From the NCBI GenBank assembly GCA_038065095.1, contig JBBTRR010000004.1:15998-79997 (forward strand): DNA of 64,000 bases. Reading direction: 5' to 3'. Source of the DNA: Patescibacteria group bacterium (lineage in GTDB: Bacteria; Patescibacteriota; Minisyncoccia; JACQLN01). The notes beneath the pieces are model-generated. The model did not search any database and was not told the origin of the DNA. It was given only the letters and a program-made list of their open reading frames with translations. Below are positions 2,591 to 58,316 of this stretch, one piece after another. The translations under genes and the position numbers were made by a program. Each line of letters begins with the position of its first letter. Within the stretch, counting starts at the first letter, position 1.

Positions 2591-3375
2591 TTTTGCGTGG
2601 CCGAAGTTTTGGCATAATCATTTAAAGTTTGTTGCCAAAAATAAGTTACACTATCCATTTGATTCAAAGTCATAAGTGATTTTAGTGGATCTTCCAAATC
2701 ACCCTTCATAACTTCTACTATTTTTTTTGCGCTAATAACGCTGATCATAAGATTTTTATGAAGATTTAAATATTTAGGTGGAATTTCTATTTCCGACAAG
2801 TTTCTAAAAGAATCCCCAAGGGTATTGGAATAAGAATTTAATTTATTTTGAACTCCCTCGTCGCTCAGTTTTTCCAAATCTATTTCTAAAATATTTGTCA
2901 TAGCTGTTAATATTTTTTCTGTTTCTTTTTTTGTTGAGTCAAAATATTTTTTACGGTTAGCTGATGAATCATTGGAAGTTTTAAGAACAGATGTTGGTAT
3001 TATAGGGAATAAGTTTATTTCGTTAGATTTAAAATATGGCATAACAGTTTCCACTAAAAAATCGGAGCTTTGAACTTTTTGAGCCGAAACACTTGTTAGC
3101 CCAGCCGTATCAATAACTGTACTTAGAAATTCATCTGTTAAATTTTTATCTTCTGGAGCAACGTAGGCGTTTTGATTTTCTTTTTCTTGCTCGTTAAGCT
3201 TTAAAAGCTCGCCTAAAAGTTCATCGCTGGTTTTGCCAGCCGATAATGGAGTAGAAGCTTCATCTACACCATAACTAACAGTTGTTTTTAAAACCAAGTA
3301 AGCGCCACCAAAAATACCTAGCAAGAAAACCAAAACCAAGCCAAACCAAAAGTATTTTCTGGGGTGATTAGTCAT
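2587..3375 (-). CDS. Membrane-anchored hypothetical protein (N-terminal TM)
   Basis: 262-aa ORF with N-terminal hydrophobic helix FWFGLVLVFLLGIFGGAYLVL. Translationally coupled (ATGA) to the downstream large secreted ORF. Confidence 0.5.
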   Translation of the reverse strand: MTNHPRKYFWFGLVLVFLLGIFGGAYLVLKTTVSYGVDEASTPLSAGKTSDELLGELLKLNEQEKENQNAYVAPEDKNLTDEFLSTVIDTAGLTSVSAQKVQSSDFLVETVMPYFKSNEINLFPIIPTSVLKTSNDSSANRKKYFDSTKKETEKILTAMTNILEIDLEKLSDEGVQNKLNSYSNTLGDSFRNLSEIEIPPKYLNLHKNLMISVISAKKIVEVMKGDLEDPLKSLMTLNQMDSVTYFWQQTLNDYAKTSATQK

Positions 3376-3585: not shown

Positions 3586-4488
3586 TTAGGCATTTGTCAT
3601 TATTTTTTCATATAATGCCTTAAGTGTTTTGATATCTAGGTTCTGGGCTCTAATTTTTTTATCAAATTTAAGTTCGTTAAAGATGTTTTCTAGTTCATCG
3701 GGTTTAGCCGAATTTGTTTTTTTAAGGTTGTTAAAAAGTGTCTGCCGAGGCTGTTTAAATGCTTTTCTTAGAAATTCTATAAATTCGCTAAATTCATTGC
3801 CCTTAAATTCATTATCTTTAGTTCCAACTCTAAACGTGTCATGAGCATACGATCGTAAGCTCGGGACACATAAGTAAGGAGTCAGCCTGATTATCACAGA
3901 GTCTACTTTTGGTTGGGGCCAGAAGTTTTCTTTGCCTACTTTAAACAGAATTTCGGTTTCAGCCATAAATTGTATTAACGAAGAAAGATAGTTCGCCTTT
4001 GGTGGCTGGGCCGTAATCCGCTCGCCCACCTCTTTTTGAACCATAAGTATCAATTCCGAAGGCTTATTAGTGGAAAGCAGGAATTTTTGGATCAGTTTGC
4101 CCGTTAAATAGTAAGGAATATTGGCAATTATCCGATACGGAGATTTGAGAATTTTTTCGTCAAATTTTAAAATATCCCCCTCAATAATTTTTAATTTGCT
4201 TGCCCCGAGCTTGGTCGAGGGGTAATTTTGAGATTTTAATTTCAACAATTCGGTCAAATTATCATCTTTCTCTATCGCTATTATATTTGCTCCAGCTTCC
4301 AATAACGCCATAGTCAGATTTCCTGTGCCTGGTCCAACTTCTAAAATATTCTCACCACTTTTAATTTTAGCTTCTATAATTATGCGTTTTATTATTTCTT
4401 CGGAAACTAAAAAATTTTGACCAAAATGCTTTATTGGTTGTAAGTTTTTTTGTTTTAATTTGGATTTAGTTTCTTTAACTAGTTTCAT
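3586..4488 (-). CDS. rsmA: 16S rRNA (adenine1518/1519-N6)-dimethyltransferase RsmA/KsgA
   Basis: FGQNFL motif, SAM-binding EVGPGTGNLT and VDS..IRL motif typical of KsgA. Contains an in-frame 39-bp palindromic repeat (see 3833-3872). Confidence 0.85.
   Translation of the reverse strand: MKLVKETKSKLKQKNLQPIKHFGQNFLVSEEIIKRIIIEAKIKSGENILEVGPGTGNLTMALLEAGANIIAIEKDDNLTELLKLKSQNYPSTKLGASKLKIIEGDILKFDEKILKSPYRIIANIPYYLTGKLIQKFLLSTNKPSELILMVQKEVGERITAQPPKANYLSSLIQFMAETEILFKVGKENFWPQPKVDSVIIRLTPYLCVPSLRSYAHDTFRVGTKDNEFKGNEFSEFIEFLRKAFKQPRQTLFNNLKKTNSAKPDELENIFNELKFDKKIRAQNLDIKTLKALYEKIMTNA
3833..3872. repeat. 39-bp nested palindromic element inside the rsmA coding region
   Basis: On the coding strand it reads gtgtcccgagcttacgatcgtatgctcatgacacgtt (encodes CVPSLRSYAHDT). 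The first 24 nt are identical to the hairpin at 42974-43013 downstream of trpS. Confidence 0.6.
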
Positions 4489-6518: not shown

Positions 6519-6540
6519 AAAATTATAGCAGATTATTAAT

Positions 6541-6725
6541 TTTCAATTATCAATTCACAATTATCAATGAATTTTCAAGGTCTTAATTTTCAAACCCATT
6601 TGATAATTGAATCATTGTTTGACCCCCGTAGTCTTGCCGTGCCACTCCATAGCCTTTGGCGAAGGGCGGGCGAAGTGGGAGAGTTTGATTGAAAATTGAA
6701 CATTGTAAATTGAAAATTTGAATCA
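6541..6725. repeat. Composite palindromic intergenic element, copy 1, with nested GC-rich insert
   Basis: Left arm caattatcaatgaattttcaa and right arm tgaaaattgaacattgtaaattgaaaattt are identical to the copy at 31785-31872. They flank a about 60-bp GC-rich insert (6634-6694) whose reverse complement matches the tRNA-Pro 5' leader at 58185-58225. Confidence 0.55.
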
Positions 6726-6965
6726 ACTGGATCTGTGGACTACCTGATTGACCCAATGTCTCAAAAAAGCTATCATTTACCTATAACCTTGCCTTGCAGG
6801 GTTTTGTGCTTAAATAAGCTTTCTAAGCCAATATTCAGCTATTTTGGGGCTAGAGTAATTATCTAGCCAGATTAGTTTAGTAGAGGTCAATATCCGATTA
6901 GTATTTGGTATAAAATTTTATCTTTTTACGAAAACATTCTCGCTTCTTTAAAGAGTAAGCGAGTT

Positions 6966-8084
6966 TTGTTCTTAAGCTTTTCATTATCTAGAAAACTGAT
7001 ATACACATCAGTTTTTTTGTTTGTCCTATCTTTTGGATCAATTTTATTTTTTTCTGGTAATAATTCTGCTAGTTTAGATTCGGATAATAAGAGTATAGTA
7101 GAAGAAATAGATACTGGGGATGAAAGTTTTTTAAAAAAGATAATACCTCAAGAATCTCCGGTAACCTCGGCTATTTTATTTGCTGGTAATTTAGAAAGTA
7201 GAATTAGCGGAGTATTTCGTGGAACAAATTCAAATGGGGTTTTGGGTGGTCCAGAGGATAGTGCGAGTAATTTAGAAACAGCCGGCAATGCTTTAGTAGC
7301 ACAGGGTTCGATATTGGCTATAATTCCAGCAAACACAGATAGTTTTGTATCAGACGGAAACATATTTACCTACGAAATTGAAACTGGAGACAGTTTGGAA
7401 TCAATCGCTAACGATTTTGGTGTTTCAGTTGATACATTACTTAGCGCTAATAACTTACCCAAAGGAACTAAACTAAAAGTTGGCGATAAACTTTCAGTTT
7501 TACCGGTTGATGGTGTTAGACACACTATAAAATCTGGAGACACTATTAAATCTATCGCTATTAAATATAATGCCGATGAAGTTAGAATAATTGCTTTTAA
7601 TGATTTACCCGACGATGGCAAAATTGTTACAGGACAAATTTTAACAATTCCTGGTGGCGAATACCACGTACCAATAAGTATAAGGTATGCGCCGTCTCAA
7701 AATCCATCTGCCGAAAGTTTGCCGATTATTACAGGTTACTATGGTCGTCCATCTAATGGGCGAATAACATTTGGTTTACACAGGTTCAACGCTGTAGATA
7801 TTGGTGGACACGAATGGTGCAATACCCCTCTCTACGCTTCAGCCGCAGGCATTATTATTACTGCCGATGCTCAAGGTTGGAATGGTGGTTATGGTAAATA
7901 TATAAAAATTTCGCACGATAATGGCACTATTACTTTGTATGCCCACGCTTCGCAACTTTTAGTAAGCGAGGGCCAGAGTGTTAAAAAAAGCCAAACCATA
8001 GCTTTGATGGGTTCTACCGGCAATACTACCGGTTGCCATGTTCACTTTGAAGTCCGTGGCGCTAAAAACCCTTTCGCGAACTAG
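6966..8084 (+). CDS. LysM-domain M23 family metallopeptidase (cell-wall hydrolase)
   Basis: N-terminal TM/signal, two LysM repeats (GDSLESIANDFGVSVDTL; GDTIKSIAIKYNADE), C-terminal M23 core with HxH (GCHVHFEV). Confidence 0.8.
   Translation: MFLSFSLSRKLIYTSVFLFVLSFGSILFFSGNNSASLDSDNKSIVEEIDTGDESFLKKIIPQESPVTSAILFAGNLESRISGVFRGTNSNGVLGGPEDSASNLETAGNALVAQGSILAIIPANTDSFVSDGNIFTYEIETGDSLESIANDFGVSVDTLLSANNLPKGTKLKVGDKLSVLPVDGVRHTIKSGDTIKSIAIKYNADEVRIIAFNDLPDDGKIVTGQILTIPGGEYHVPISIRYAPSQNPSAESLPIITGYYGRPSNGRITFGLHRFNAVDIGGHEWCNTPLYASAAGIIITADAQGWNGGYGKYIKISHDNGTITLYAHASQLLVSEGQSVKKSQTIALMGSTGNTTGCHVHFEVRGAKNPFAN
8054..8084. repeat. 31-bp direct repeat, left copy (3' end of the M23 gene)
   Basis: tccgtggcgctaaaaaccctttcgcgaacta is identical to 8742-8772; the two copies bracket the higBA-like cassette. 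Confidence 0.7.
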
Positions 8085-8115
8085 TTTGTAAAATATATTT
8101 ATTGAACAAACATAA

Positions 8116-8430
8116 ATGGAGGTTAAAATTTTTGACGATAATTTAGAAAAGTTCATAAAATCGCTGGAAAAACCAACTATAGCCAAAGTGCTGCGCATAA
8201 TTGATCTCTTGGAACTTTTTGGAAATAAATTGAATATGCCCCACAGCAAAAAAGTAGCTGTTCATCTTTTTGAATTAAGGGTAAGAGGCATTCAAGATGT
8301 GAGAATTTTATATGCTTTTAATAAAGGAGAAGTAGTATTACTCCACGGCTTTATAAAAAAGAGCAGTCGTATTCCTAAAAAAGAAATAGATATTGCCTTG
8401 AGTAAGTTGAATCGCTTGACTCGTGTATAA
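8116..8430 (+). CDS. higB: HigB-like toxin (Gp49/DUF891-type RelE/ParE superfamily)
   Basis: 104 aa; ...HLFELRVRGIQDVRILYAFNKGEVVLLHGFIKKSSRIPKKEIDIA is typical of the phage Gp49-like toxin family. Followed by an XRE antitoxin. Confidence 0.7.
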   Translation: MEVKIFDDNLEKFIKSLEKPTIAKVLRIIDLLELFGNKLNMPHSKKVAVHLFELRVRGIQDVRILYAFNKGEVVLLHGFIKKSSRIPKKEIDIALSKLNRLTRV

Positions 8431-8451
8431 CGTATAAGTTATAGTGGAATT

Positions 8452-8730
8452 ATGAAAAAATACTCTGTATTAAAAAAACAACTTCTTAAAGATAAAATTG
8501 TAAAAAAGGTCTACGATGATTTAGGGTCGGAATTTAAGGTTATAGCTCTGTTCATTAAAAAGCGGTTAGAAAAAGGTTTAACTCAACAGGAACTAGCCCG
8601 TCGGATTGGCACTAAACAATCGGCTATTGCCCGCTTTGAATCTGGCACTTATAATCCCACTATAGATTTTTTAAATAAAGTTGCCTTAGGCTTAAACACT
8701 CGCATTAAGATTTCAATAGATTTTAAATAA
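8452..8730 (+). CDS. higA: XRE-family HTH antitoxin (HigA-like)
   Basis: 92 aa; HTH LTQQELARRIGTKQSAIARFESG immediately downstream of the toxin gene (HigBA order). Confidence 0.7.
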   Translation: MKKYSVLKKQLLKDKIVKKVYDDLGSEFKVIALFIKKRLEKGLTQQELARRIGTKQSAIARFESGTYNPTIDFLNKVALGLNTRIKISIDFK

Positions 8731-8741
8731 ATATCTTTGTA

Positions 8742-8772
8742 ATCCGTGGCGCTAAAAACCCTTTCGCGAACT
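8742..8772. repeat. 31-bp direct repeat, right copy
   Basis: Identical to 8054-8084. Here it is preceded by taa and followed by aataa, consistent with being the ancestral 3' end of the M23 gene. Confidence 0.7.
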
Positions 8773-8786
8773 AAATAAATTTAATT

Positions 8787-8826
8787 AAAAAAACCGCCCC
8801 GATCCTATATCGGGGCGGTTTTTTGT
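8787..8826. terminator. Bidirectional Rho-independent terminator
   Basis: aaaaaaaccgccccgatcctatatcggggcggtttttt: GC stem flanked by an A-tract and a T-tract between convergent genes. Confidence 0.6.
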
Positions 8827-9087
8827 TTACCGATACAAATGGCTGTGACTATTAACAGCTACAAAAATAGCCACGTCTTTTGTATCTTGTTTATATATAG
8901 CTCTTAAATCGCCGCTTATGTTTATGCTTCTATAGCTAGCATATTTACCCTCAAGAGGGTGATTATTTAGAATGGGGTTAAATATGTCTAAAAGAAAAAT
9001 CGTCAATCTTTCTTTTAGCTTAGATTGCTCGTTCGCTTTTAGTTTCTGAAATTGCTTTTCAAAGTTTCTATGAAAACGAATAATCAT
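8827..9087 (-). CDS. RelE/YafQ-family mRNA interferase toxin
   Basis: 86 aa; ...HPLEGKYASYRSINISGDLRAIYKQDTKDVAIFVAVNSHSHLY is the RelE/YafQ C-terminal signature. 4-bp overlap with the upstream antitoxin. Confidence 0.7.
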   Translation of the reverse strand: MIIRFHRNFEKQFQKLKANEQSKLKERLTIFLLDIFNPILNNHPLEGKYASYRSINISGDLRAIYKQDTKDVAIFVAVNSHSHLYR

Positions 9088-9362
9088 AAAGTATTAAGAT
9101 ACTTTATGGCTTTGTCGGCCGAATCAAAAGATGGCGACAAATTCTTTTTTGTTTGAATGTCTTTTTCTATGCCACCTAAAAGACGCTCAAATTCAGGCGT
9201 CATTTGAGGAATACTAGAGAAATAAACTTCACGACTGCGAATGAAGTTTCTTAAAGCCGCGTTTATTACATCGCTTAAAGATAAGCCTAAATCCTTAGCT
9301 AGTTTCTGAACCGTATTTTTTATTTCTTTTTCGGTTTTAATGTTTATTATAGTTTTTGACAT
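9084..9362 (-). CDS. RelB/DinJ-family antitoxin
   Basis: 92 aa, RHH-like N-terminus (LSDVINAALRNFI), immediately upstream of and overlapping the toxin gene. Confidence 0.65.
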   Translation of the reverse strand: MSKTIINIKTEKEIKNTVQKLAKDLGLSLSDVINAALRNFIRSREVYFSSIPQMTPEFERLLGGIEKDIQTKKNLSPSFDSADKAIKYLNTL

Positions 9363-9402: not shown

Positions 9403-10920
9403 TTAATTTTGCGGTCTATATTGCAACGCTTCGTTAATATGATCGGGCGCAATATTTTCCGATGCTGAAAGATCAGCAATAGTGCGGGCGAGTTTTAAAA
9501 CTCGGTGGTAACCGCGGGCCGAAAGATTATATTTATAAACCGCGGTTTTAATAAGTTCTTGGCATTTTTCGTCTAGCCGGCAAAATAGTTTTATATCTTT
9601 TAACCGCATTTCGCTATTAGTAGCAAAGCCAAAATTTTTAAATCTTTCACGTTGGATTTTTCTGGCACTTTCCACCCGTTCTCTAATCTTATTTGATGCT
9701 TCGGCTACACTTTCCGAGGCTAATTTTTCGTATTGTACTCTGGGCACCTCCACGTGAAGGTCTATCCTGTCTAAAAGAGGTCCAGAGATTTTTCTTTTAT
9801 ATTTTTGAACTTGAAAAGGTGTGCAAACACATTCTTTTTGTGGGTCGTTTAAAAAACCACAAGGGCAGGGGTTCATAGTGGCGGTTAAAATAAATTTAGC
9901 GGGGAAAGTTAAACTACCTTTTACACGCGAAACTGTAACAGTGCCGTCTTCTAAGGGTTGGCGCAAACTTTCTAAAACATCGCGGTTAAATTCGGGAAAT
10001 TCGTCTAAAAATAAAACACCTCGGTGCGATAAAGTTATTTCACCTGGTTTAGGCACACTGCCCCCGCCAACTAAGGCCGCGGCCGAAGACGTATGATGTG
10101 GCGATCTAAATGGCCGTGTTCTTATTAACGGTTCTTTGTGGCTGATTAAACCAGCTACCGAAAAAATTCTAGTGCTCTCTAAAATTTCTTCTTTTTCCAT
10201 AGCAGGTAATATAGAAATTAAAGCTCGAGCTAGCAATGTTTTGCCGGATCCCGGGGGCCCGCTCATTAGTATGTTGTGATTTCCTGCCGCAGTAACTTCT
10301 AGGGCGCGCTTGGCAAAATCTTGGTCTTTAATATAGGCAAAATCGTGTTCGTATTCTTGCTTAATTGGCGCGAGAATAACTGGTTCTATGGGTTTTATTA
10401 TTTTTCTTTTAGAAAAATGTTCGCAGGCTTCGGCTAGGTTTTTTAGTGGAAAAATATCTATACCATCAACTAGTCCAGCTTCCTTAGCGTTTTCTTCGGG
10501 TACATAAAGTTCTTTTGTGCCAAATGTTCTTGCCATAATAGCAATTGGCATAACACCAAAAACAGGTCTAATAGAACCGTCTAATGCGAGTTCGCCTATG
10601 AATATTTTACCTTCGGGGTCAAAATTAATCTGCCTAGAAACTAAAAGATAAGCCAAGGCTATCGGGAGGTCATATTTTGGGCCTTCTTTTTTTAGATCAG
10701 CTGGAGCCAAATTAACAATTACTCGCTTATTAGATTGATTTGGTGGAATTAAACCCGTATTTTTTATAGCAGCCGAAACCCTATCTTTAGCTTCTTCTAT
10801 GGCTTTATCTGGTAAGCCTACAATATTAAAAACATGTAGACCTCGGGCAAGGTCTACCTCAACTTCTACAGGTTGAGCATCTAAGCCAACCAAAGCCGCA
10901 GAATATATTTTACTAGGCAC
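9403..10920 (-). CDS. comM: YifB/ComM family Mg-chelatase-like AAA+ ATPase
   Basis: N-terminal Lon-like domain; Walker [15 protein letters not shown]; C-terminal Mg-chelatase ChlI-like region. Confidence 0.85.
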   Translation of the reverse strand: MPSKIYSAALVGLDAQPVEVEVDLARGLHVFNIVGLPDKAIEEAKDRVSAAIKNTGLIPPNQSNKRVIVNLAPADLKKEGPKYDLPIALAYLLVSRQINFDPEGKIFIGELALDGSIRPVFGVMPIAIMARTFGTKELYVPEENAKEAGLVDGIDIFPLKNLAEACEHFSKRKIIKPIEPVILAPIKQEYEHDFAYIKDQDFAKRALEVTAAGNHNILMSGPPGSGKTLLARALISILPAMEKEEILESTRIFSVAGLISHKEPLIRTRPFRSPHHTSSAAALVGGGSVPKPGEITLSHRGVLFLDEFPEFNRDVLESLRQPLEDGTVTVSRVKGSLTFPAKFILTATMNPCPCGFLNDPQKECVCTPFQVQKYKRKISGPLLDRIDLHVEVPRVQYEKLASESVAEASNKIRERVESARKIQRERFKNFGFATNSEMRLKDIKLFCRLDEKCQELIKTAVYKYNLSARGYHRVLKLARTIADLSASENIAPDHINEALQYRPQN

Positions 10921-15519: not shown

Positions 15520-17628
15520 TTAATTTTTAACTTGTTTTTGTGCGTCTTTAAGTGAAAGATTTATTCTGCCTTCGGTGTCTATATTTTTTACTACAACAGG
15601 GACTACGTCTCCTACATTTACAATATCCTCTACTCTATTTACGCGAAATGGTGCTAGTTCAGAAATATGGATCAAGCCCTGTTGACCAGGCAGTATTTCG
15701 GCAAATGCGCCAAAATCTAATATTTTTACTATTTTACCTTGGAACATTTCTCCTTGAACAATTTCGCGTGTAAGACTGTCTATCCATTCTTTGGCCTTTT
15801 GGACCGATTCTTCATTGTTAGAAGTTATAAAGATAGTGCCATCATCGTCTATATCTATTGTAACACCAGTTTCATCTGTTATCTGGTGAATAGTTTTCCC
15901 GCCCACGCCAATAACATCTCTAATTTTAGCAGGATTTATTTTTAAAGTTAATATTTTTGGTGCATAAGGCGACATTTTCTTTCTTGGTTCGGGAATAATT
16001 TTTAGCATGGCTTCAAGAATTTCTAATCTAGCTTTTTTAGCTTGAACCAAGGCTTGTGAAAGTATTTTAGAGGTTAAACCCGATATTTTTACATCCAGCT
16101 GCAAAACATTAACACCTTCTTTTGTACCAGCTATTTTAAAATCCATATCGCCATAATGATCTTCTGCTCCTTGTAAATCTGTAACAACGACAAACTTTTT
16201 TTCTGGATTGGTTTCGTCTTCAATAAATAAACCCATAGCTATGCCAGCTACTGGTTTTTTAATTTTTACACCTGCGTCCATTAAAGCCAGAGTCGAACCG
16301 CAAGTAGCCGCCATAGAAGTGGAGCCATTAGAAGAAAGAATTTCTGTTACAACCCTAATTGTATAGGGGAAATCTCCTTTGGTAGGAAGTACAGGTTCTA
16401 GCGCGCTTTCAGCTAGCGCACCGTGACCTATTTCTCTTCGGCCTGGGTTGCCAGTTTTACCGGTTTCTCCCGAAGAAAATGGAGGAAAGTTATAATGGTG
16501 GATATAACGTTTATTACCCTCAAATTCCATTGTTTCAATAGATTGTTCCATGCCCGGAGCGCCTAGTGTGGCAACGCACAAGGCTTGGGTTTGGCCTCTT
16601 TGGAAAATAGCCGAACCATGGGTGCGTGGCAGCACGCCAACTTCAATACTAAGTTCGCGGATTTCTTCTATTTTTCTGCCATCTACGCGTTTGTTTTTTT
16701 CTAAAATATTTTTATGAATTATTTCATTCATTTCTTCTTCAAAAAGAATGTTGGCTTCGGCTATATTTTTAGGAGTTTTTTTATCTTCGGCCATACTTAG
16801 AAAAAACTCTTTTTTAATTTCTTCGGTAGCTTCCATATCGCCCTTAGAGATAACTTCTTCTAAGCGTTTACCAACAAAACTTTTTATTTCTTTTCTTAAG
16901 GCTTCATCTGCAGAAGGCACAGAGACCAATAATGGCTTATGACCAAGAGTTTCAACTATACTTTTTTGGAAGCTTATTAATTTTTGTGTTTCTTTTTGGG
17001 CGATTTCAAAAGCCGAAATTAAATCTTCCTCGGTTACTTCGTTGGAACGGCACTCTATCATATTTACTAACTTTTCTGGGCCGGAAATAACTAAATCCAA
17101 ATCACTTTTAGCACGCTGGGCATAATTTGGGTTTACTATTATTTTTTTATTTTCATCTCGCCCTACCCTTACGGTCCCTACTGGGCCATTCCAAGGAATA
17201 CCAGAAATTAATATGGCAGTGGATCCTGCAATTATGGCAGGTATATCTGCATCATTTTCTCCATCAAAAGATAAAACAGTTACAATAAGCTGAACCTCGT
17301 TTCTTAATCTGTGGTTAAACAGAGGGCGTAAGGTTCTATCTATTAAACGAGCGGTTAGAACAGCTTCATCTGTGGCTTTGCCTTCTCTTTTTACCCAACG
17401 AGAAGCTTTAATTTTACCTGCAGCATAATATCTTTCTTCAAAATCTACGCTAAGTGGAAAGTAATCTATGCCGGTTCGTTCGTTTTTAGACATAACTACT
17501 GTGGCTAATACCACGGTTTCACCATAAGTTACTGTTACAGCGCCGTTGGCTTGCATGGCCAAATGACCTGTTTCCACCACCAATTTTTTTGAACCTATTT
17601 CAGTTTCAAATATTTTTTTATTATTCAC
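15520..17628 (-). CDS. pnp: Polyribonucleotide nucleotidyltransferase (PNPase)
   Basis: 702 aa; two RNase PH domains, KH and C-terminal S1 domain. Downstream of rpsO as in the canonical operon. Confidence 0.92.
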   Translation of the reverse strand: MNNKKIFETEIGSKKLVVETGHLAMQANGAVTVTYGETVVLATVVMSKNERTGIDYFPLSVDFEERYYAAGKIKASRWVKREGKATDEAVLTARLIDRTLRPLFNHRLRNEVQLIVTVLSFDGENDADIPAIIAGSTAILISGIPWNGPVGTVRVGRDENKKIIVNPNYAQRAKSDLDLVISGPEKLVNMIECRSNEVTEEDLISAFEIAQKETQKLISFQKSIVETLGHKPLLVSVPSADEALRKEIKSFVGKRLEEVISKGDMEATEEIKKEFFLSMAEDKKTPKNIAEANILFEEEMNEIIHKNILEKNKRVDGRKIEEIRELSIEVGVLPRTHGSAIFQRGQTQALCVATLGAPGMEQSIETMEFEGNKRYIHHYNFPPFSSGETGKTGNPGRREIGHGALAESALEPVLPTKGDFPYTIRVVTEILSSNGSTSMAATCGSTLALMDAGVKIKKPVAGIAMGLFIEDETNPEKKFVVVTDLQGAEDHYGDMDFKIAGTKEGVNVLQLDVKISGLTSKILSQALVQAKKARLEILEAMLKIIPEPRKKMSPYAPKILTLKINPAKIRDVIGVGGKTIHQITDETGVTIDIDDDGTIFITSNNEESVQKAKEWIDSLTREIVQGEMFQGKIVKILDFGAFAEILPGQQGLIHISELAPFRVNRVEDIVNVGDVVPVVVKNIDTEGRINLSLKDAQKQVKN

Positions 17629-19461: not shown

Positions 19462-19521
19462 AAAATAGAGTGTAGAATTAGATATATAGTTAAATGATTA
19501 CTTTTGATTGTTTCAAACTTT

Positions 19522-19553
19522 TCTCATTTTGTCGCTCGAGCGAAAAGATGAGA
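19522..19553. repeat. CTCGAG-centred palindrome, copy 2 (divergent promoter region)
   Basis: tctcattttgtcgctcgagcgaaaagatgaga, between the divergently transcribed YraN-like and PaaX-like genes. Confidence 0.6.
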
Positions 19554-19653
19554 TTGATGTGAAAAAAGAGAAAAGGAGAAGAGACGAGACAAAATATAAA
19601 AAATTAGAGAAATTAGAGATGGATAAGTTTATATAATTTACAAGTTTGAATAA

Positions 19654-20220
19654 ATGGATAAAAATAGTTTTAATAAATTAGGTCCAACTAAAAAGAAAAT
19701 AATATTATTGCTTGCTGGGGGAGTAGGGCTTTCTTTGGCAGGCACGCCCAAGAAATATTTTGGTGTTATTAAAAGTGTAGCAGATGAATGGAATAAAATT
19801 AATGAGACGTCTCTTAAGCGGGCTATAAAGTCGCTTTATGAATCAAAATTGATAGAGGCTAGGGAACATGAAAATGGTTCTATGACTGTAGTTCTTTCGG
19901 AAAACGGCCGTAAAAAGGCCTTAACTTATAATATGGATACTATGGCCATTAAAAAACCCGCCATTTGGGATGGTAAATGGCGAATGGTTATGTTTGATAT
20001 TCCTAATAAAAGAAAAAAGGAAAGAGATGTATTGAGAAATATGCTAAAACAACTTGGGTTTATAAAATATCAAGAAAGCGCCTTTATTTTGCCTTACGAA
20101 TGCAAAAACGAGGTAGATTATGTGGTTGAATTCTTTAACCTCCGCCCGCACGTTAGGTTTTTAGAAATAAGTAAATTTGATGATGACTTAGCTTTAAAAA
20201 ACAGATTTGGGTTGGTTTAG
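19654..20220 (+). CDS. PaaX-like winged-helix regulator
   Basis: N-terminal wHTH-like region; C-terminal WDGKWRMVMFDIPNKRKKERDVLRNMLKQLGFIKYQESAFILPY resembles the PaaX C-terminal domain. Confidence 0.45.
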   Translation: MDKNSFNKLGPTKKKIILLLAGGVGLSLAGTPKKYFGVIKSVADEWNKINETSLKRAIKSLYESKLIEAREHENGSMTVVLSENGRKKALTYNMDTMAIKKPAIWDGKWRMVMFDIPNKRKKERDVLRNMLKQLGFIKYQESAFILPYECKNEVDYVVEFFNLRPHVRFLEISKFDDDLALKNRFGLV

Positions 20221-20239
20221 TGGTCTAGGTTTTAACTAA

Positions 20240-20271
20240 TCTCATTTACTCGCTCGAGCGAGAAGATGAGA
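20240..20271. repeat. CTCGAG-centred palindrome, copy 3
   Basis: tctcatttactcgctcgagcgagaagatgaga downstream of the PaaX-like gene, followed by a second terminator hairpin acctccgaagggttacccttcggaggt. Confidence 0.6.
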
Positions 20272-20351
20272 AGGGTATTAAAAATTATTTAAAACCTCCG
20301 AAGGGTTACCCTTCGGAGGTTGATGAGATTAATGGTTGAAATGAATATTTT

Positions 20352-31784: not shown

Positions 31785-31872
31785 TTCTCAATTTTGCAAT
31801 TATCAATGAATTTTCAATGATTCAATTATAAAATCCGTTTGAAAATTGAACATTGTAAATTGAAAATTTTAA
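31785..31872. repeat. Palindromic intergenic element, copy 2 (compact form)
   Basis: Arms identical to 6563-6583 and 6688-6717, with only a about 23-bp centre. A third partial arm lies at 33317-33347. Confidence 0.55.
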
Positions 31873-33306: not shown

Positions 33307-34437
33307 ATGAAAATTGTAAATTGTAAATTGAAAATTATTAAAGCAATTGGATTATTAGCAATTGTTTTGTTGTTGGTCACTGTAATTTCTCCTCCTGCTT
33401 ATGCCGCCAATTGCGGTGCTTCAGTTGACAACCCAGCGACCCCAGAAAATGATACACAACCATGCGTAGGAGGTTTGGTTCCCTGCACGGGTATAAACTG
33501 TTCTCTGTGTGATCTTTTTGCTTTAGCCCAAAATATTTTTAACTTTGTGGTATGGACGCTGGTGCCTATAATTGGCACGGGTATGATTTTATGGAGCGGT
33601 TTTACCATTTTAACCGCAGGCGAAAAGCCAGATCAAGTTAAAAAAGGTAGGAAAATGATAACCGCTACACTAATTGGCATAGCCATAGTTTATTCTTCTT
33701 ACATCATGGCTTCGTTTGTGGTTAAGTTTTTGGCTGGTAATGGCACAGCCAGTTCTAGCTTTAAAAATGGCCAATTTGATATTCAATGTACTAGCGAAGC
33801 AATCCGTGATGTTACAGGTAAATATCTTAAAAACGGTAGTTATACATTTGATATAAAAGATGAAATTTTATTAGCCGAAGAAGAACCAGCTCCAGAAGTT
33901 GTATCTGGACAAGAGGAAGCTTTTGATTTGGGCAAAACAGAAGGTGTTATTTTGAATATTAAAACAAAACCAGGCGTGAATTTAGACGGTGTGGATTCAC
34001 AGGTTATTAATCAATTATCAGCAGCAGTGATAGATGTTAGAACAAACGCAGCAGGCAATCCAAACTTTATCTTACAAGATTTAAAGGTTGCATCCGGTTT
34101 TAGAGATTTAGGAGAACAATTGGATCTTGTTGCTCAAAATTGTAAAGATCCAGATGCGGTTAAATGTGATCCAAAGTCTTCAAAGTATCCTATTACGTGT
34201 ATTCCTAAAGATACGGATCAAAATGGAAGCGTGGATGGCAAAAATTGCCGCCATACCACCGGTAAGGCTTTAGATGTTTGGGGTTATAATAAAAGCGGTG
34301 CTAAGTGTTGCCAAAATGAAGTTATACAAGTTATGAAAAGAAATGGTTTTTGTGTTTACAAAGAAATTTGGCATTTTGAACTTAAATCAAATTTAGAAAA
34401 AGATAAAAACAGGTTAAATGTTTTTACTTGTAACTAA
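33307..34437 (+). CDS. Fusion protein: TrbC/VirB2-like two-TM module fused to C-terminal M15-family peptidoglycan peptidase
   Basis: N-terminal 150 aa parallel the two downstream small paralogs (signal, Cys motif, two TMs with charged loop GEKPDQVKKGRKM). The C-terminal domain has the M15 motifs ASGFRD (SxxR), RHTTGKALDVWGY (HxxGxAxD) and EIWHFE (ExWH). Confidence 0.6.
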   Translation: MKIVNCKLKIIKAIGLLAIVLLLVTVISPPAYAANCGASVDNPATPENDTQPCVGGLVPCTGINCSLCDLFALAQNIFNFVVWTLVPIIGTGMILWSGFTILTAGEKPDQVKKGRKMITATLIGIAIVYSSYIMASFVVKFLAGNGTASSSFKNGQFDIQCTSEAIRDVTGKYLKNGSYTFDIKDEILLAEEEPAPEVVSGQEEAFDLGKTEGVILNIKTKPGVNLDGVDSQVINQLSAAVIDVRTNAAGNPNFILQDLKVASGFRDLGEQLDLVAQNCKDPDAVKCDPKSSKYPITCIPKDTDQNGSVDGKNCRHTTGKALDVWGYNKSGAKCCQNEVIQVMKRNGFCVYKEIWHFELKSNLEKDKNRLNVFTCN

Positions 34438-35406: not shown

Positions 35407-35718
35407 ATGGAAGAGACAACCCTGTCGTCAAAAACTGAGCGATTGCCAGAGTTTTTTAGGCCACTTTTTTGGTCGTATAATTTTGATTATATTGATCCCG
35501 ATAAAGACATAAAAACAATAGTTTTGAATGTGATAAATTATGGGTATTGGAAACACTGGCATTGGTTGGTTTATCATTACGGCATAGATGTCATTAGAAA
35601 TATTTTGACCCATTTTTTGTCAACGGAACTTAGGCCGCCAGCGGAAAAACTAGCGAGGGTTGTATTCAATTTAAAATCTCTTAACAATGCATCTCGAAGC
35701 ACTAACCAAGACAGGTAG
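35407..35718 (+). CDS. Hypothetical small protein overlapping the AbiEii gene (possible cognate antitoxin)
   Basis: 103 aa; overlaps the downstream NTase toxin gene by 32 nt in a different frame (typical TA coupling). No recognisable domain. Confidence 0.3.
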   Translation: MEETTLSSKTERLPEFFRPLFWSYNFDYIDPDKDIKTIVLNVINYGYWKHWHWLVYHYGIDVIRNILTHFLSTELRPPAEKLARVVFNLKSLNNASRSTNQDR

Positions 35719-36307
35719 GGAAATTTTTCCAATTCTCAAGAATTTTTCGGAATTCTATTTAGCTGGCGGCACGGCTTTGGCTTTGCAATTAGGTCATCGC
35801 GTTTCGGCTGATTTTGATTTATTTAGCGGGATTGATATTCCGGCAGAATTACTGCCACTGGTTCAAAAGACTTTTGATAAAAAGACTTTTCAAATCAGCG
35901 TCAATAACAGAGAGGAACTGACAGTATTTATAAATGGCGTTAAGATTACTTTTTTGAATTATCCATTTCCAGTTTTAGAAGATACAACTGAATATGAAGG
36001 TTTAAAAATGTTAGGCGTTTCCGAAATAGCCACAACCAAAGCTTATACTATCGGGCGCCGAGGCTCGTTTAAAGATTATGTTGATTTATATTTTGCAGTT
36101 AAGGAAAAAATTATTGGTTTGGACGGAATTATTAAACAGGCTGATAAAAAATATGGGGGATATTTTAACGGTCGTCTGTTTTTAGAACAGTTGGTTTATT
36201 TAAATGATATTGAGGATACAGAGATTATTTTTCTAAAAGAAACAGTGGATAAAAATAATCTAGAGGAGTTTTTTGTGGCAGAAATTAAAAAGATCAAATT
36301 TGATTGA
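35687..36307 (+). CDS. AbiEii/AbiGii-family nucleotidyltransferase toxin (DUF1814)
   Basis: FYLAGGTALALQLGHRVSADFDLF and KDYVDLYF motifs are characteristic of AbiEii. Confidence 0.65.
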   Translation: MHLEALTKTGREIFPILKNFSEFYLAGGTALALQLGHRVSADFDLFSGIDIPAELLPLVQKTFDKKTFQISVNNREELTVFINGVKITFLNYPFPVLEDTTEYEGLKMLGVSEIATTKAYTIGRRGSFKDYVDLYFAVKEKIIGLDGIIKQADKKYGGYFNGRLFLEQLVYLNDIEDTEIIFLKETVDKNNLEEFFVAEIKKIKFD

Positions 36308-43560: not shown

Positions 43561-44466
43561 TTATTCTTTTCTTCTGCGTGCGTGGAAGGCTTTGTGAATT
43601 TCTTTTAAGCCTGTGTCTGTAACGTGGGTGTATATTTGAGTTGTGGTTATATTGGCATGTCCCAGCATGGCTTGAACCGAACGTATATCGGCACCATTGC
43701 GTAATAAATCAGTTGCGAAAGAATGGCGCAATGTATGCGGGTGAATATCTTTTACAATTCCGGCTTTGGTTGCATAGTGTTTAACAATTCTTTGAACGGT
43801 TCTAGGTGTAATTCTTAAATCTTTATTCGCTTTTTGTTTTTTATCACTTATTCTTCTAGCGAATAGTGCTTCACTCATATCTTCTCTTTTAGCAATATAG
43901 TTTTCTAAAGAACGCCTGGCGGGTTCAGAAAGAAAAACCACGCGAATTTTATCGCCTTTACCGCGTACTGCAAACTCGCCACGTTTTAAATTAACTGATT
44001 CTTTATTTAACGAACAAAGTTCGGAAACACGTAATCCCGTAGAAAACAAAAGTTCTAATAAGGCTTTGTCGCGTAAGTTTTTAACAGAATTACCATTAGC
44101 AGAATCCAACAAGCGCTCTATTTCTTCGTTTTCTAAAAAGTCTATGTGCCTATCGCCAATTTTTCCCAATTCTATTTTGTCGGCGGTTAAAGTTTTTACA
44201 TCGCGTTTGGCTAAGTATTTTAAAAAATTACGTAAAGCAATTAAATGGTAGGCTTGTGTAATTTTTTTTAATGGGGGAGTTATTCGGTTTAGATGTAATC
44301 TATAGTTTCTAACTACATCGTTGGAAATACTAGAAGGTGAATTAATTTTGGCGTAATCAAAAAAGCGTCTTAGATAACGATCGTAATTTTCTATCGTTTT
44401 TATTGAACGGTTTTTTTCTATTTCTAAATAATTTAAATAATCGGTGAATAAAGATTTTATAGTCAT
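43561..44466 (-). CDS. xerC: Tyrosine site-specific recombinase (XerC/XerD family)
   Basis: C-terminal HTLRHSFATDLLRNGADIRSVQAMLGHANITTTQIYTHV contains the R..H..R..Y catalytic residues. Confidence 0.85.
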   Translation of the reverse strand: MTIKSLFTDYLNYLEIEKNRSIKTIENYDRYLRRFFDYAKINSPSSISNDVVRNYRLHLNRITPPLKKITQAYHLIALRNFLKYLAKRDVKTLTADKIELGKIGDRHIDFLENEEIERLLDSANGNSVKNLRDKALLELLFSTGLRVSELCSLNKESVNLKRGEFAVRGKGDKIRVVFLSEPARRSLENYIAKREDMSEALFARRISDKKQKANKDLRITPRTVQRIVKHYATKAGIVKDIHPHTLRHSFATDLLRNGADIRSVQAMLGHANITTTQIYTHVTDTGLKEIHKAFHARRRKE

Positions 44467-58106: not shown

Positions 58107-58177
58107 TCGGGGCGCCGAGAATCGAACTCGGCCTACCTGTTCCCAAAACAGGCGTACTACCAATATACGACGCCCCG
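58107..58177 (-). tRNA. tRNA-Pro (anticodon UGG)
   Basis: CGGGGCG-TC-GTAT-ATTGGTA-GTAC-G-CCTGT-TTTGGGA-ACAGG-TAGG-CCGAG-TTCGATT-CTCGG-CGCCCCG-A. Confidence 0.85.
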
Positions 58178-58316
58178 CCTTCGCCCACCCTTCGCCAAAG
58201 GCTACGGAGTGGCAAGTAATGCTACGGCGGGCAAGCCCGCTTAAGCACTCAAGCTACTAACATCTACTCTATCAAATAGCCCAAATTTAAGAAAGGTGTT
58301 GTATAATTAAAAGATA

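Follow-up and report, generated by a model that had tools for sequence, protein, structure and literature searches.

The 64,000-nucleotide stretch analyzed here (positions 15,998 to 79,997 of contig JBBTRR010000004.1, assembly GCA_038065095.1, from a Patescibacteria group bacterium; hereafter, the window) carries a two-gene higBA-type toxin-antitoxin cassette at the 3' end of a gene encoding an M23-family peptidoglycan peptidase, with a copy of that gene end on either side of the cassette. Comparison with relatives indicates that the cassette is an old insertion into a site that was once empty. The account we favor, with moderate confidence, is that the cassette entered by host recombination at a short patch of homology to the target and that recombination has since kept the two copies alike. 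The case is built on observations of the anatomy of the locus, its empty site, its age, the co-variation of the two copies, a swap of cassette alleles, and an excess of similar brackets across the cassette family.

The repeat is a 31-mer, TCCGTGGCGCTAAAAACCCTTTCGCGAACTA, present exactly twice in the window, at 8053 to 8083 and 8743 to 8773. A preliminary description of this DNA had reported identical 31-bp direct repeats at 8054 to 8084 and 8742 to 8772; the repeats exist, but each copy lies one base away from those positions. A search tolerating as many as 3 mismatches revealed no third copy in the window, and none of 100 shuffles produced a match, which rules out a chance or common motif. 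Ungapped extension aligns 8045 to 8083 with 8735 to 8773 at 37/39 identical positions, both mismatches falling at the 5' edge, where a match of at least 6/8 would arise by chance with a probability of about 0.01. The left of these extended copies (exact core, 8053 to 8083; forward strand) encodes FEVRGAKNPFAN and belongs to the working gene, a LysM-LysM-M23 peptidase gene on the forward strand at 6966 to 8084 (Pfam Peptidase_M23, E = 6.6e-26; LysM, E = 9.8e-23). This gene ends in TAG at 8082 to 8084, and gene callers also use an alternative start at 7017. The right, orphan copy (exact core, 8743 to 8773; forward strand) begins 4 nt past the antitoxin stop and reads into the native TAA at 8772 to 8774. 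The context downstream, TAAATAAA, agrees with the empty site of a relative, L010 (comparison loci are given as L numbers), and leads to a strong bidirectional intrinsic terminator hairpin at 8788 to 8824 (A-tract, stem, and U-tract; -26.5 kcal/mol, z = -5.7). Thus, the duplication regenerates the M23 C terminus and leaves the gene intact, and the right copy has a stop and terminator context of its own, both as previously described. The right copy is therefore the displaced native end of the M23 gene, still joined to the stop codon and terminator that belong to it. The strand of the repeat does not fold significantly (z = -0.9), and an operator-like role was ruled out by eye, as the palindromes are not conserved between lineages.

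Exactly two genes lie between the copies, the HigB-like toxin and XRE antitoxin pair that had been noted there. The cassette occupies 8084 to 8742 (659 bp), and the unit measures 690 bp when one repeat copy is included. It opens with a 32-nt leader on the forward strand, between the M23 stop and the toxin start (8084 to 8115), that contains a small palindrome (GTTTGT...ACAAAC, 8084 to 8111). The leader has neither a terminator nor a convincing promoter of its own, so the cassette is likely expressed by read-through from M23. The toxin gene (8116 to 8430, forward strand; 104 aa) encodes a Gp49/HigB-like protein of the RelE/ParE superfamily (Pfam Gp49 PF05973, E = 1.2e-20; 73.7 bits against a cut-off of 23.9), with zero matches in NCBIfam. 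It has 607 homologs at an E value of 1e-10 or lower, and those with a named source all come from Parcubacteria/Patescibacteria genomes and are labeled RelE/ParE toxins. The antitoxin gene (8452 to 8730, forward strand; 92 aa) encodes an XRE-type helix-turn-helix protein (HTH_3 PF01381, E = 4.9e-14), whose NCBIfam matches fall under the curated cut-offs and indicate helix-turn-helix antitoxin or repressor families. The toxin gene precedes the antitoxin gene on the same strand across a 21-nt gap, the reverse order. By these matches the cassette is a predicted chromosomal HigB(Gp49)/HigA(XRE) type II toxin-antitoxin module, and it resembles known HigB/HigA modules in gene order, protein lengths, spacing, and Pfam scores well over the cut-offs. 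The genes themselves are ordinary, and only their setting differs: a 32-nt leader, the 3' end of a housekeeping gene, and copies of that gene end as brackets. No known RNA element was recognized between 6400 and 9600, where no Rfam match reached the gathering score and the weak ones merely reflect the terminator.

The structure is reproduced in independent data. In Hainich groundwater metagenomes, 16 contigs encode this exact toxin, and one of them, 384 kb long, is identical to the window across the 5 kb compared. All contigs that extend beyond the antitoxin gene (6/6, from several Hainich samples, one belonging to an independent assembly of low coverage) hold the cassette between two copies, with a single base change in the right copy of one low-coverage contig. 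An independent, error-rich assembly (L021) also covers both copies, and both cassette genes are intact in every covering contig except that one. This agreement among contigs and assemblies rules out an assembly artifact. The closest genomes belong to Ca. Yanofskybacteria.

Relatives preserve the site without the cassette. In L010, whose M23 protein is 83% identical to that of the window (as are those of L009 and L025) and whose ComM-like protein is 93% identical, the M23 gene ends in TAA-ATAAA, followed by the hairpin and the stop codon of the ComM gene, and toxin-antitoxin genes are absent. In the more distant L011 and L012, the M23 gene directly adjoins the ComM gene. When 8084 to 8773 (690 bp) is deleted in silico, the window becomes colinear with L010, the TAA-ATAAA context and terminator included. 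The empty gap in L010, L011, and L012 therefore points to the empty state as ancestral and to the cassette as an insertion. The earlier proposal of a cassette inserted at the 3' end of a resident gene is borne out by these empty sites and by the virtual excision, and the suggested comparison of orthologous M23 loci gave L010 without the insert and other lineages with it.

The insertion had also been described as recent, which would make the repeat a fresh scar in this genome. The perfect 31-nt core and the lack of the cassette in the close relatives L009 and L010 fit that picture, yet we consider it highly improbable. The cassette is present in every contig of the population that reaches the site, and an M23 gene followed by higBA also occurs in L025 (M23, 83%; toxin, 85%), in L110 (ComM, 89%; toxin, 75%), in L022, L024, and L028 (M23, 64%; ComM, 81%; toxin, 76%), and in L109 and L026. 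L110, L024, and L028 share the junction of the window; they are diverged lineages with toxins of 75 to 76% identity and unalignable leaders, the M23 identity dropping to only 64%. The right copies of L024, L028, and L110 begin at the same TTTG of the HFE motif, 3 to 9 nt past the antitoxin stop; those of L024 and L028 are exact copies of 38 to 41 nt, and the copies of L110 are identical at 26/30 positions. A GTAATC variant at the left edge of the right copy is common to the window and L110. At least three diverged lineages of Ca. Yanofskybacteria carry the junction; the insertion is old and has been inherited or exchanged among them. Strict co-divergence of cassette and host is not upheld, as the ComM protein of L110 is 89% identical to that of the window and its toxin only 75%. 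Neither of the two contrary outcomes named in the preliminary description was encountered.

The two copies vary together. Between the window and L024, the left copy differs at 8/32 positions, and within each of these genomes the two copies agree over 31 to 41 nt. For the window and L110, the right copies match at 33/40 positions, compared with 62% at third codon positions (P = 0.005), while the leaders are unalignable, and the differences between these orphan copies are mostly synonymous-looking. Such retention relative to third codon positions argues that the orphan copy does not drift freely; it is either overwritten from the working copy or was itself periodically part of a working gene.

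Exchange of the cassette between lineages can be read from one mosaic. Between L024 and L028, identity falls to only about 75% in a segment that runs from where the left copy ends to midway through the antitoxin gene. On either side of this segment the sequence is shared: the M23 end on the left and, on the right, the 3' half of the antitoxin gene, followed by the right copy and the DNA downstream of it. The breakpoints fall at the end of the M23 copy on the left and within the antitoxin gene on the right. This pattern identifies a probable recombination mosaic in which cassette alleles were swapped by homologous recombination. Identity between copies often stops within the stop codon (TAG/TAA in the window, TAA/TAG in L028 and L093), which we attribute to the mosaic breakpoint at the duplicated gene end.

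For a survey of such brackets, we fetched 80 metagenome loci with relatives of the toxin. Screening for exact matches detected direct repeats of 17 to 54 nt on both sides of the cassette at 10 loci, compared with 2/149 shifted positions and 0/154 positions on a grid over the window. In a mismatch-tolerant test of 71 loci, with a threshold of at least 28 bits and the inverted orientation serving as the internal control, direct brackets were present at 20/71 loci and inverted ones at 0/71 (P = 4e-7). The comparison sets gave 2/55 shifted positions, 6/152 other single genes, and 1/18 distant viral homologs; other toxin-antitoxin families gave 3 direct and 1 inverted bracket in a small sample of just 19 usable pairs.

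The brackets are duplicates of local sequence, 17 to 119 nt long. Ends of housekeeping genes are frequent among them. They copy the 3' ends of genes for a TPR protein (L032), a PilB-type ATPase (L033), arginyl-tRNA synthetase (L093), and a 157-aa open reading frame (ORF) (L091). In L029, L037, and L041, the copied piece is the 5' end of the gene that follows, and at other loci it is intergenic DNA. In all independent cases examined (9/9), the cassette and the duplicated gene point in the same direction. The two copies in L032 differ by five third-position changes with the stop retained, those in L041 differ only synonymously (4/4), and those in L091 show conservative changes with the stop at the identical codon. 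Synonymous differences and retained stops suggest that the copies at these three loci are two alleles that were both once functional. Gene-to-repeat distances range from 1 to 119 nt upstream and from 0 to 105 nt downstream, and the L037 repeat takes in the last 47 nt of the antitoxin gene.

Several surveyed loci have further structure. L031 carries the 24-nt sequence AAAAATAGGGACGTGCACATTTTT at 232 to 255, 950 to 973, and 1523 to 1546, that is, before, between, and after two cassettes, higBA and (by eye) a HicA/HicB-like pair on the other strand, forming a small array. The 2078-nt contig L034 has a 119-nt direct repeat with one mismatch at its ends (1 to 119 and 1960 to 2078) and carries higBA and an AbiEii-type pair; it could be a circle of 1959 bp, or the repeat could bracket the two cassettes in a chromosome. 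Another contig with repeated ends, L105, was set aside as an unrelated GC-rich contig with a transposase and a toxin-antitoxin system. In L066, a perfect 52-nt direct repeat (2549 to 2600 and 3093 to 3144) encloses one gene, of the DUF559 (Vsr-like endonuclease) type; this gene, too, is small and selfish-looking, and its bracket is of the kind seen around the cassettes. In L098, an exact 31-nt direct repeat (2060 to 2090 and 3896 to 3926) directly after the focal antitoxin gene encloses an alpha/beta-hydrolase-like gene and a second, killer-type HigB/HigA-like pair, all recognized by eye from translations.

One rival reading makes the repeat an attachment site. Phages e14 and 21 in icd and islands at tRNA genes integrate at gene 3' ends and bring a replacement end. 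If the repeat were such a site, the cassette would be a mini integrative element or an island remnant mobilized by a tyrosine or serine recombinase in trans, perhaps Xer as at dif. This would explain direct repeats that bound the insert and regenerate the gene end, the occupancy of the identical site in several lineages, and the likeness of the L031 repeat to an array at one site, and an Xer-type recombinase is indeed encoded in the window, at 43561 to 44466. We nevertheless regard it as improbable. That 301-aa gene is the only recombinase in the window, lies beside nusA, 35 kb from the cassette, and scores best against XerD, XerC, or XerA, with an integron-integrase score far under the cut-off. 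No integrase family is represented in the brackets or among the genes called within 10 kb of the cassette; a scan of 20 further window ORFs of 188 to 441 aa gave just the Xer-type gene. With just two cassette genes bracketed and no integrase within that distance, the site-specific integration raised in the preliminary description finds little footing. Nor does the 31-mer behave as a fixed attachment site, as its sequence varies by lineage (8/32) and the brackets at other loci of the family copy unrelated genes over 17 to 119 nt. No dif-like two-arm dyad is apparent by eye, and the repeat does not fold significantly. Repeats with no common sequence and no common length make a trans-acting recombinase unlikely.

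The comparison with phages and islands that integrate at 3' ends is nonetheless close in anatomy: direct repeats at the boundaries, an intact gene, the native end and terminator at the far junction, and an identical core with diverged edges. The differences lie in a 659-bp cassette without an integrase, a repeat that is not fixed, and many target genes. Of the features that mark an integrative element, junction repeats and a single copy at the empty site are present here, while an integrase and a conserved core are absent. A phage origin was rejected: the 24-nt core and close relatives of the toxin are not found in IMG/VR viral contigs, where the best viral toxin relative is 42% identical. The cassette resembles integron cassettes in being compact, nearly all ORF, without an evident promoter, co-oriented with upstream transcription, and capable of forming arrays (L031). 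It differs in that no attC-like folded site (z = -0.9) and no nearby integron integrase were found and in that the bracket copies the neighboring gene; an integron gene cassette was rejected on these grounds.

Alternatively, the copies may be a true target-site duplication left by an illegitimate insertion, through staggered cuts by a transposase in trans or a template switch during replication, with homologous recombination between relatives adding allele-like differences later. IS1634 and IS1549 are insertion sequences that make long, variable direct repeats. Brackets that are always local target sequence, 17 to 119 nt long at many unrelated loci, would follow naturally from such a process, as would the perfect, sharp-ended copies at some of them (41/41 in L028, 17/17 in L093). 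The cassettes themselves do not look like transposons, and we judge this explanation to be unlikely. No transposase is found near the cassette. The leaders (16 to 45 nt and mutually unalignable) and tails of related cassettes are not conserved, leaving no conserved cassette ends. Terminal inverted repeats were sought and did not exceed background, the 16-nt AT-rich match between 8091 to 8106 and 8723 to 8738 being 1 of 16 such pairs in 771 nt, and none was credible. Gene-to-repeat distances vary, the L037 repeat enters the antitoxin gene, and the synonymous differences between copies in L032, L041, and L091 fit two functional alleles better than a decaying fresh duplicate. Duplication by staggered cuts or a template switch is possible for the founding events.

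We therefore return to host recombination through short homology, a route that does not involve a dedicated recombinase. The incoming DNA would have been circular or terminally redundant and would have borne the cassette together with a short patch of the M23 end; a single crossover between this patch and the chromosomal M23 end would then yield the observed arrangement. The M23 gene stays complete, since the insertion brought a duplicate of the gene end. In experiments with Escherichia coli, a single crossover of a circle carrying a gene-end fragment produced gene-end duplications of 109 to 950 bp (PMC3240628), and transformation may create duplications through the pairing of repeats with sister chromatids (PMC3784515). 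The product of such a Campbell-type crossover is the same as that seen here, a partial duplication of a gene end flanking the insert; the differences are a far shorter homology (31 to 48 nt) and a donor circle that is hypothetical. Once in place, the shared homology would permit precise loss of the cassette, restoring the empty site, and the swapping in of diverged cassette alleles from relatives. The copies may have been homogenized by gene conversion or by repeated precise loss and reinsertion within the population, and toxin-antitoxin addiction would place cells that lose the cassette at a selective disadvantage, helping repeat-flanked cassettes to persist.

Several points weigh against this account. 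A repeat of 31 to 48 nt is near the lower limit for RecA-dependent exchange, and at this length, long-term gene conversion between the copies has to be assumed. The source of the first patch-bearing molecule at each new locus lacks an explanation. In this population, all contigs with the identical M23 protein (9/9) carry the cassette and none shows the empty site, nor was a circular form of the cassette seen. An empty site would read as the M23 end joined to TAAATAAATTTAATT, and a circle junction would read as the antitoxin stop, ATAT, CTTTGTAA, the 31-nt core, and then GTTTGTAAAAT. L109 and L026 have no right copy after higBA; the duplication in these loci was either lost or is not obligatory to insertion. 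The evidence for co-variation comes from only three to four lineages. Finally, the 71 survey loci are not all independent, as L095 and L096 look like one region.

A broader reading, which we advance tentatively and consider rather doubtful, is that this cassette family in Patescibacteria constitutes an integrase-free class of mobile elements that combines a traveling homology patch, host recombination, and protection by addiction. The patch, taken from the end of a neighboring gene, would allow entry into the same gene end of relatives without damage, probably after DNA uptake. Addiction would guard against repeat-mediated deletion, to which any other insert of this build would succumb, and recombination between the copies would keep the patch matched, so that exit and reentry remain possible. 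One known parallel to the locus is the minimal mobile elements of Neisseria, described as variable genes between conserved flanks that move by transformation and homologous recombination (Saunders and Snyder 2002, as cited in PMC3787668). The M23-ComM gap likewise varies in content among the window, L009, L010, and L110, and L024 and L028 form a mosaic. Duplication of a gene end is not needed in the Neisseria elements, whereas here one homology arm would travel with the cassette.

Our search of full-text literature turned up no account of duplicated gene ends on both sides of a cassette, and a comparative survey of toxin-antitoxin modules does not mention flanking repeats. The movement of chromosomal toxin-antitoxin systems is poorly explained, as they are termed mobile and most have no recombinase. 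This locus and the bracketed relatives (20/71) indicate a testable route through short homology, host recombination, and addiction. The locus is also a natural example of the concerted evolution of a repeat of about 40 nt, and it reveals two conserved genes with an insertion hotspot between them, in a lineage that is uncultivated and probably naturally competent. Should the broader reading fail, a well-documented, ordinary old toxin-antitoxin insertion remains. The part most worth following is the family-wide excess of gene-end duplications.

The surroundings of the cassette are variable as well. The hairpin at 8788 to 8824 has an equivalent at the corresponding position in L010, and it is probably the native M23 terminator, which would now end an M23-higBA transcript; most likely, the M23 gene and the cassette form one transcript that stops at this old terminator. 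Beyond it lies a second, independent toxin-antitoxin pair on the reverse strand (8827 to 9362), consisting of a YafQ/RelE-type toxin gene at 8827 to 9087 (PF15738, E = 3.3e-9; TIGR02385, 40.6 bits, over its cut-off) and a RelB/DinJ-like antitoxin gene at 9084 to 9362 with a weak match (TIGR02384, 31.9 bits, under its cut-off). These profile matches support the DinJ/YafQ-like pair that had been placed on the opposite strand immediately downstream. No flanking repeat was seen around this pair, which is missing in L009 and L010 and present in L110. It exactly fills the space from the M23 terminator to the ComM stop codon, which leaves only about 40 nt for its promoter (positions compared, 7119 to 7165 in L010 and 781 to 1721 in L110).

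The variable gap is closed by a conserved convergent neighbor on the reverse strand at 9403 to 10920, a gene for a ComM/Mg-chelatase-like ATPase (PF01078, E = 1.6e-91) whose product is 93 to 95% identical to those of L009 and L010. Between the M23 and ComM genes, L010 is empty, L009 has an unrelated 162-aa ORF, the window has higBA and yafQ/relB, and L110 has both toxin-antitoxin pairs and a further 100-aa ORF. The gap between these convergent genes is an insertion hotspot.

Upstream of the M23 gene, the UvrD-M23 intergenic region (6519 to 6965 in the window) varies between strains of one population: about 200 nt of the window version is swapped for an unrelated 162 nt in L002 to L004 (7625 to 7786 in L002). 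The window version contains a GC-rich element of about 45 nt, GCCACTCCATAGCCTTTGGCGAAGGGCGGGCGAAG, that recurs in inverted orientation beside tRNA-Pro at 58170 to 58214. This element is flanked by AT-rich CAATTATCAA and ATTGTAAATTGAAAAT motifs, which recur at 31797 to 31872 and 33307 to 33340, and it may be a small mobile or regulatory element.

Elsewhere in the window, a direct repeat at 19516 and 20234 was considered as a second example of a bracket and proved to be a different thing, a pair of palindromic hairpins around a PaaX-like gene. The hairpins (19516 to 19566 and 20234 to 20284; TCTCATTT..CGCTCGAGCG..AGATGAGA) are about 80% alike and enclose a 188-aa PaaX-like gene with a Cas2-like domain at 19654 to 20220. 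An AbiEii-type toxin gene is located at 35687 to 36307. A family of AT-rich intergenic motifs (ATCAAATATCAAA...) recurs at about 4.5, 10.9, 15.4, 23.4, 33.2, 41.9, and 42.9 kb (span, 4507 to 42974) and probably represents promoter or terminator regions.

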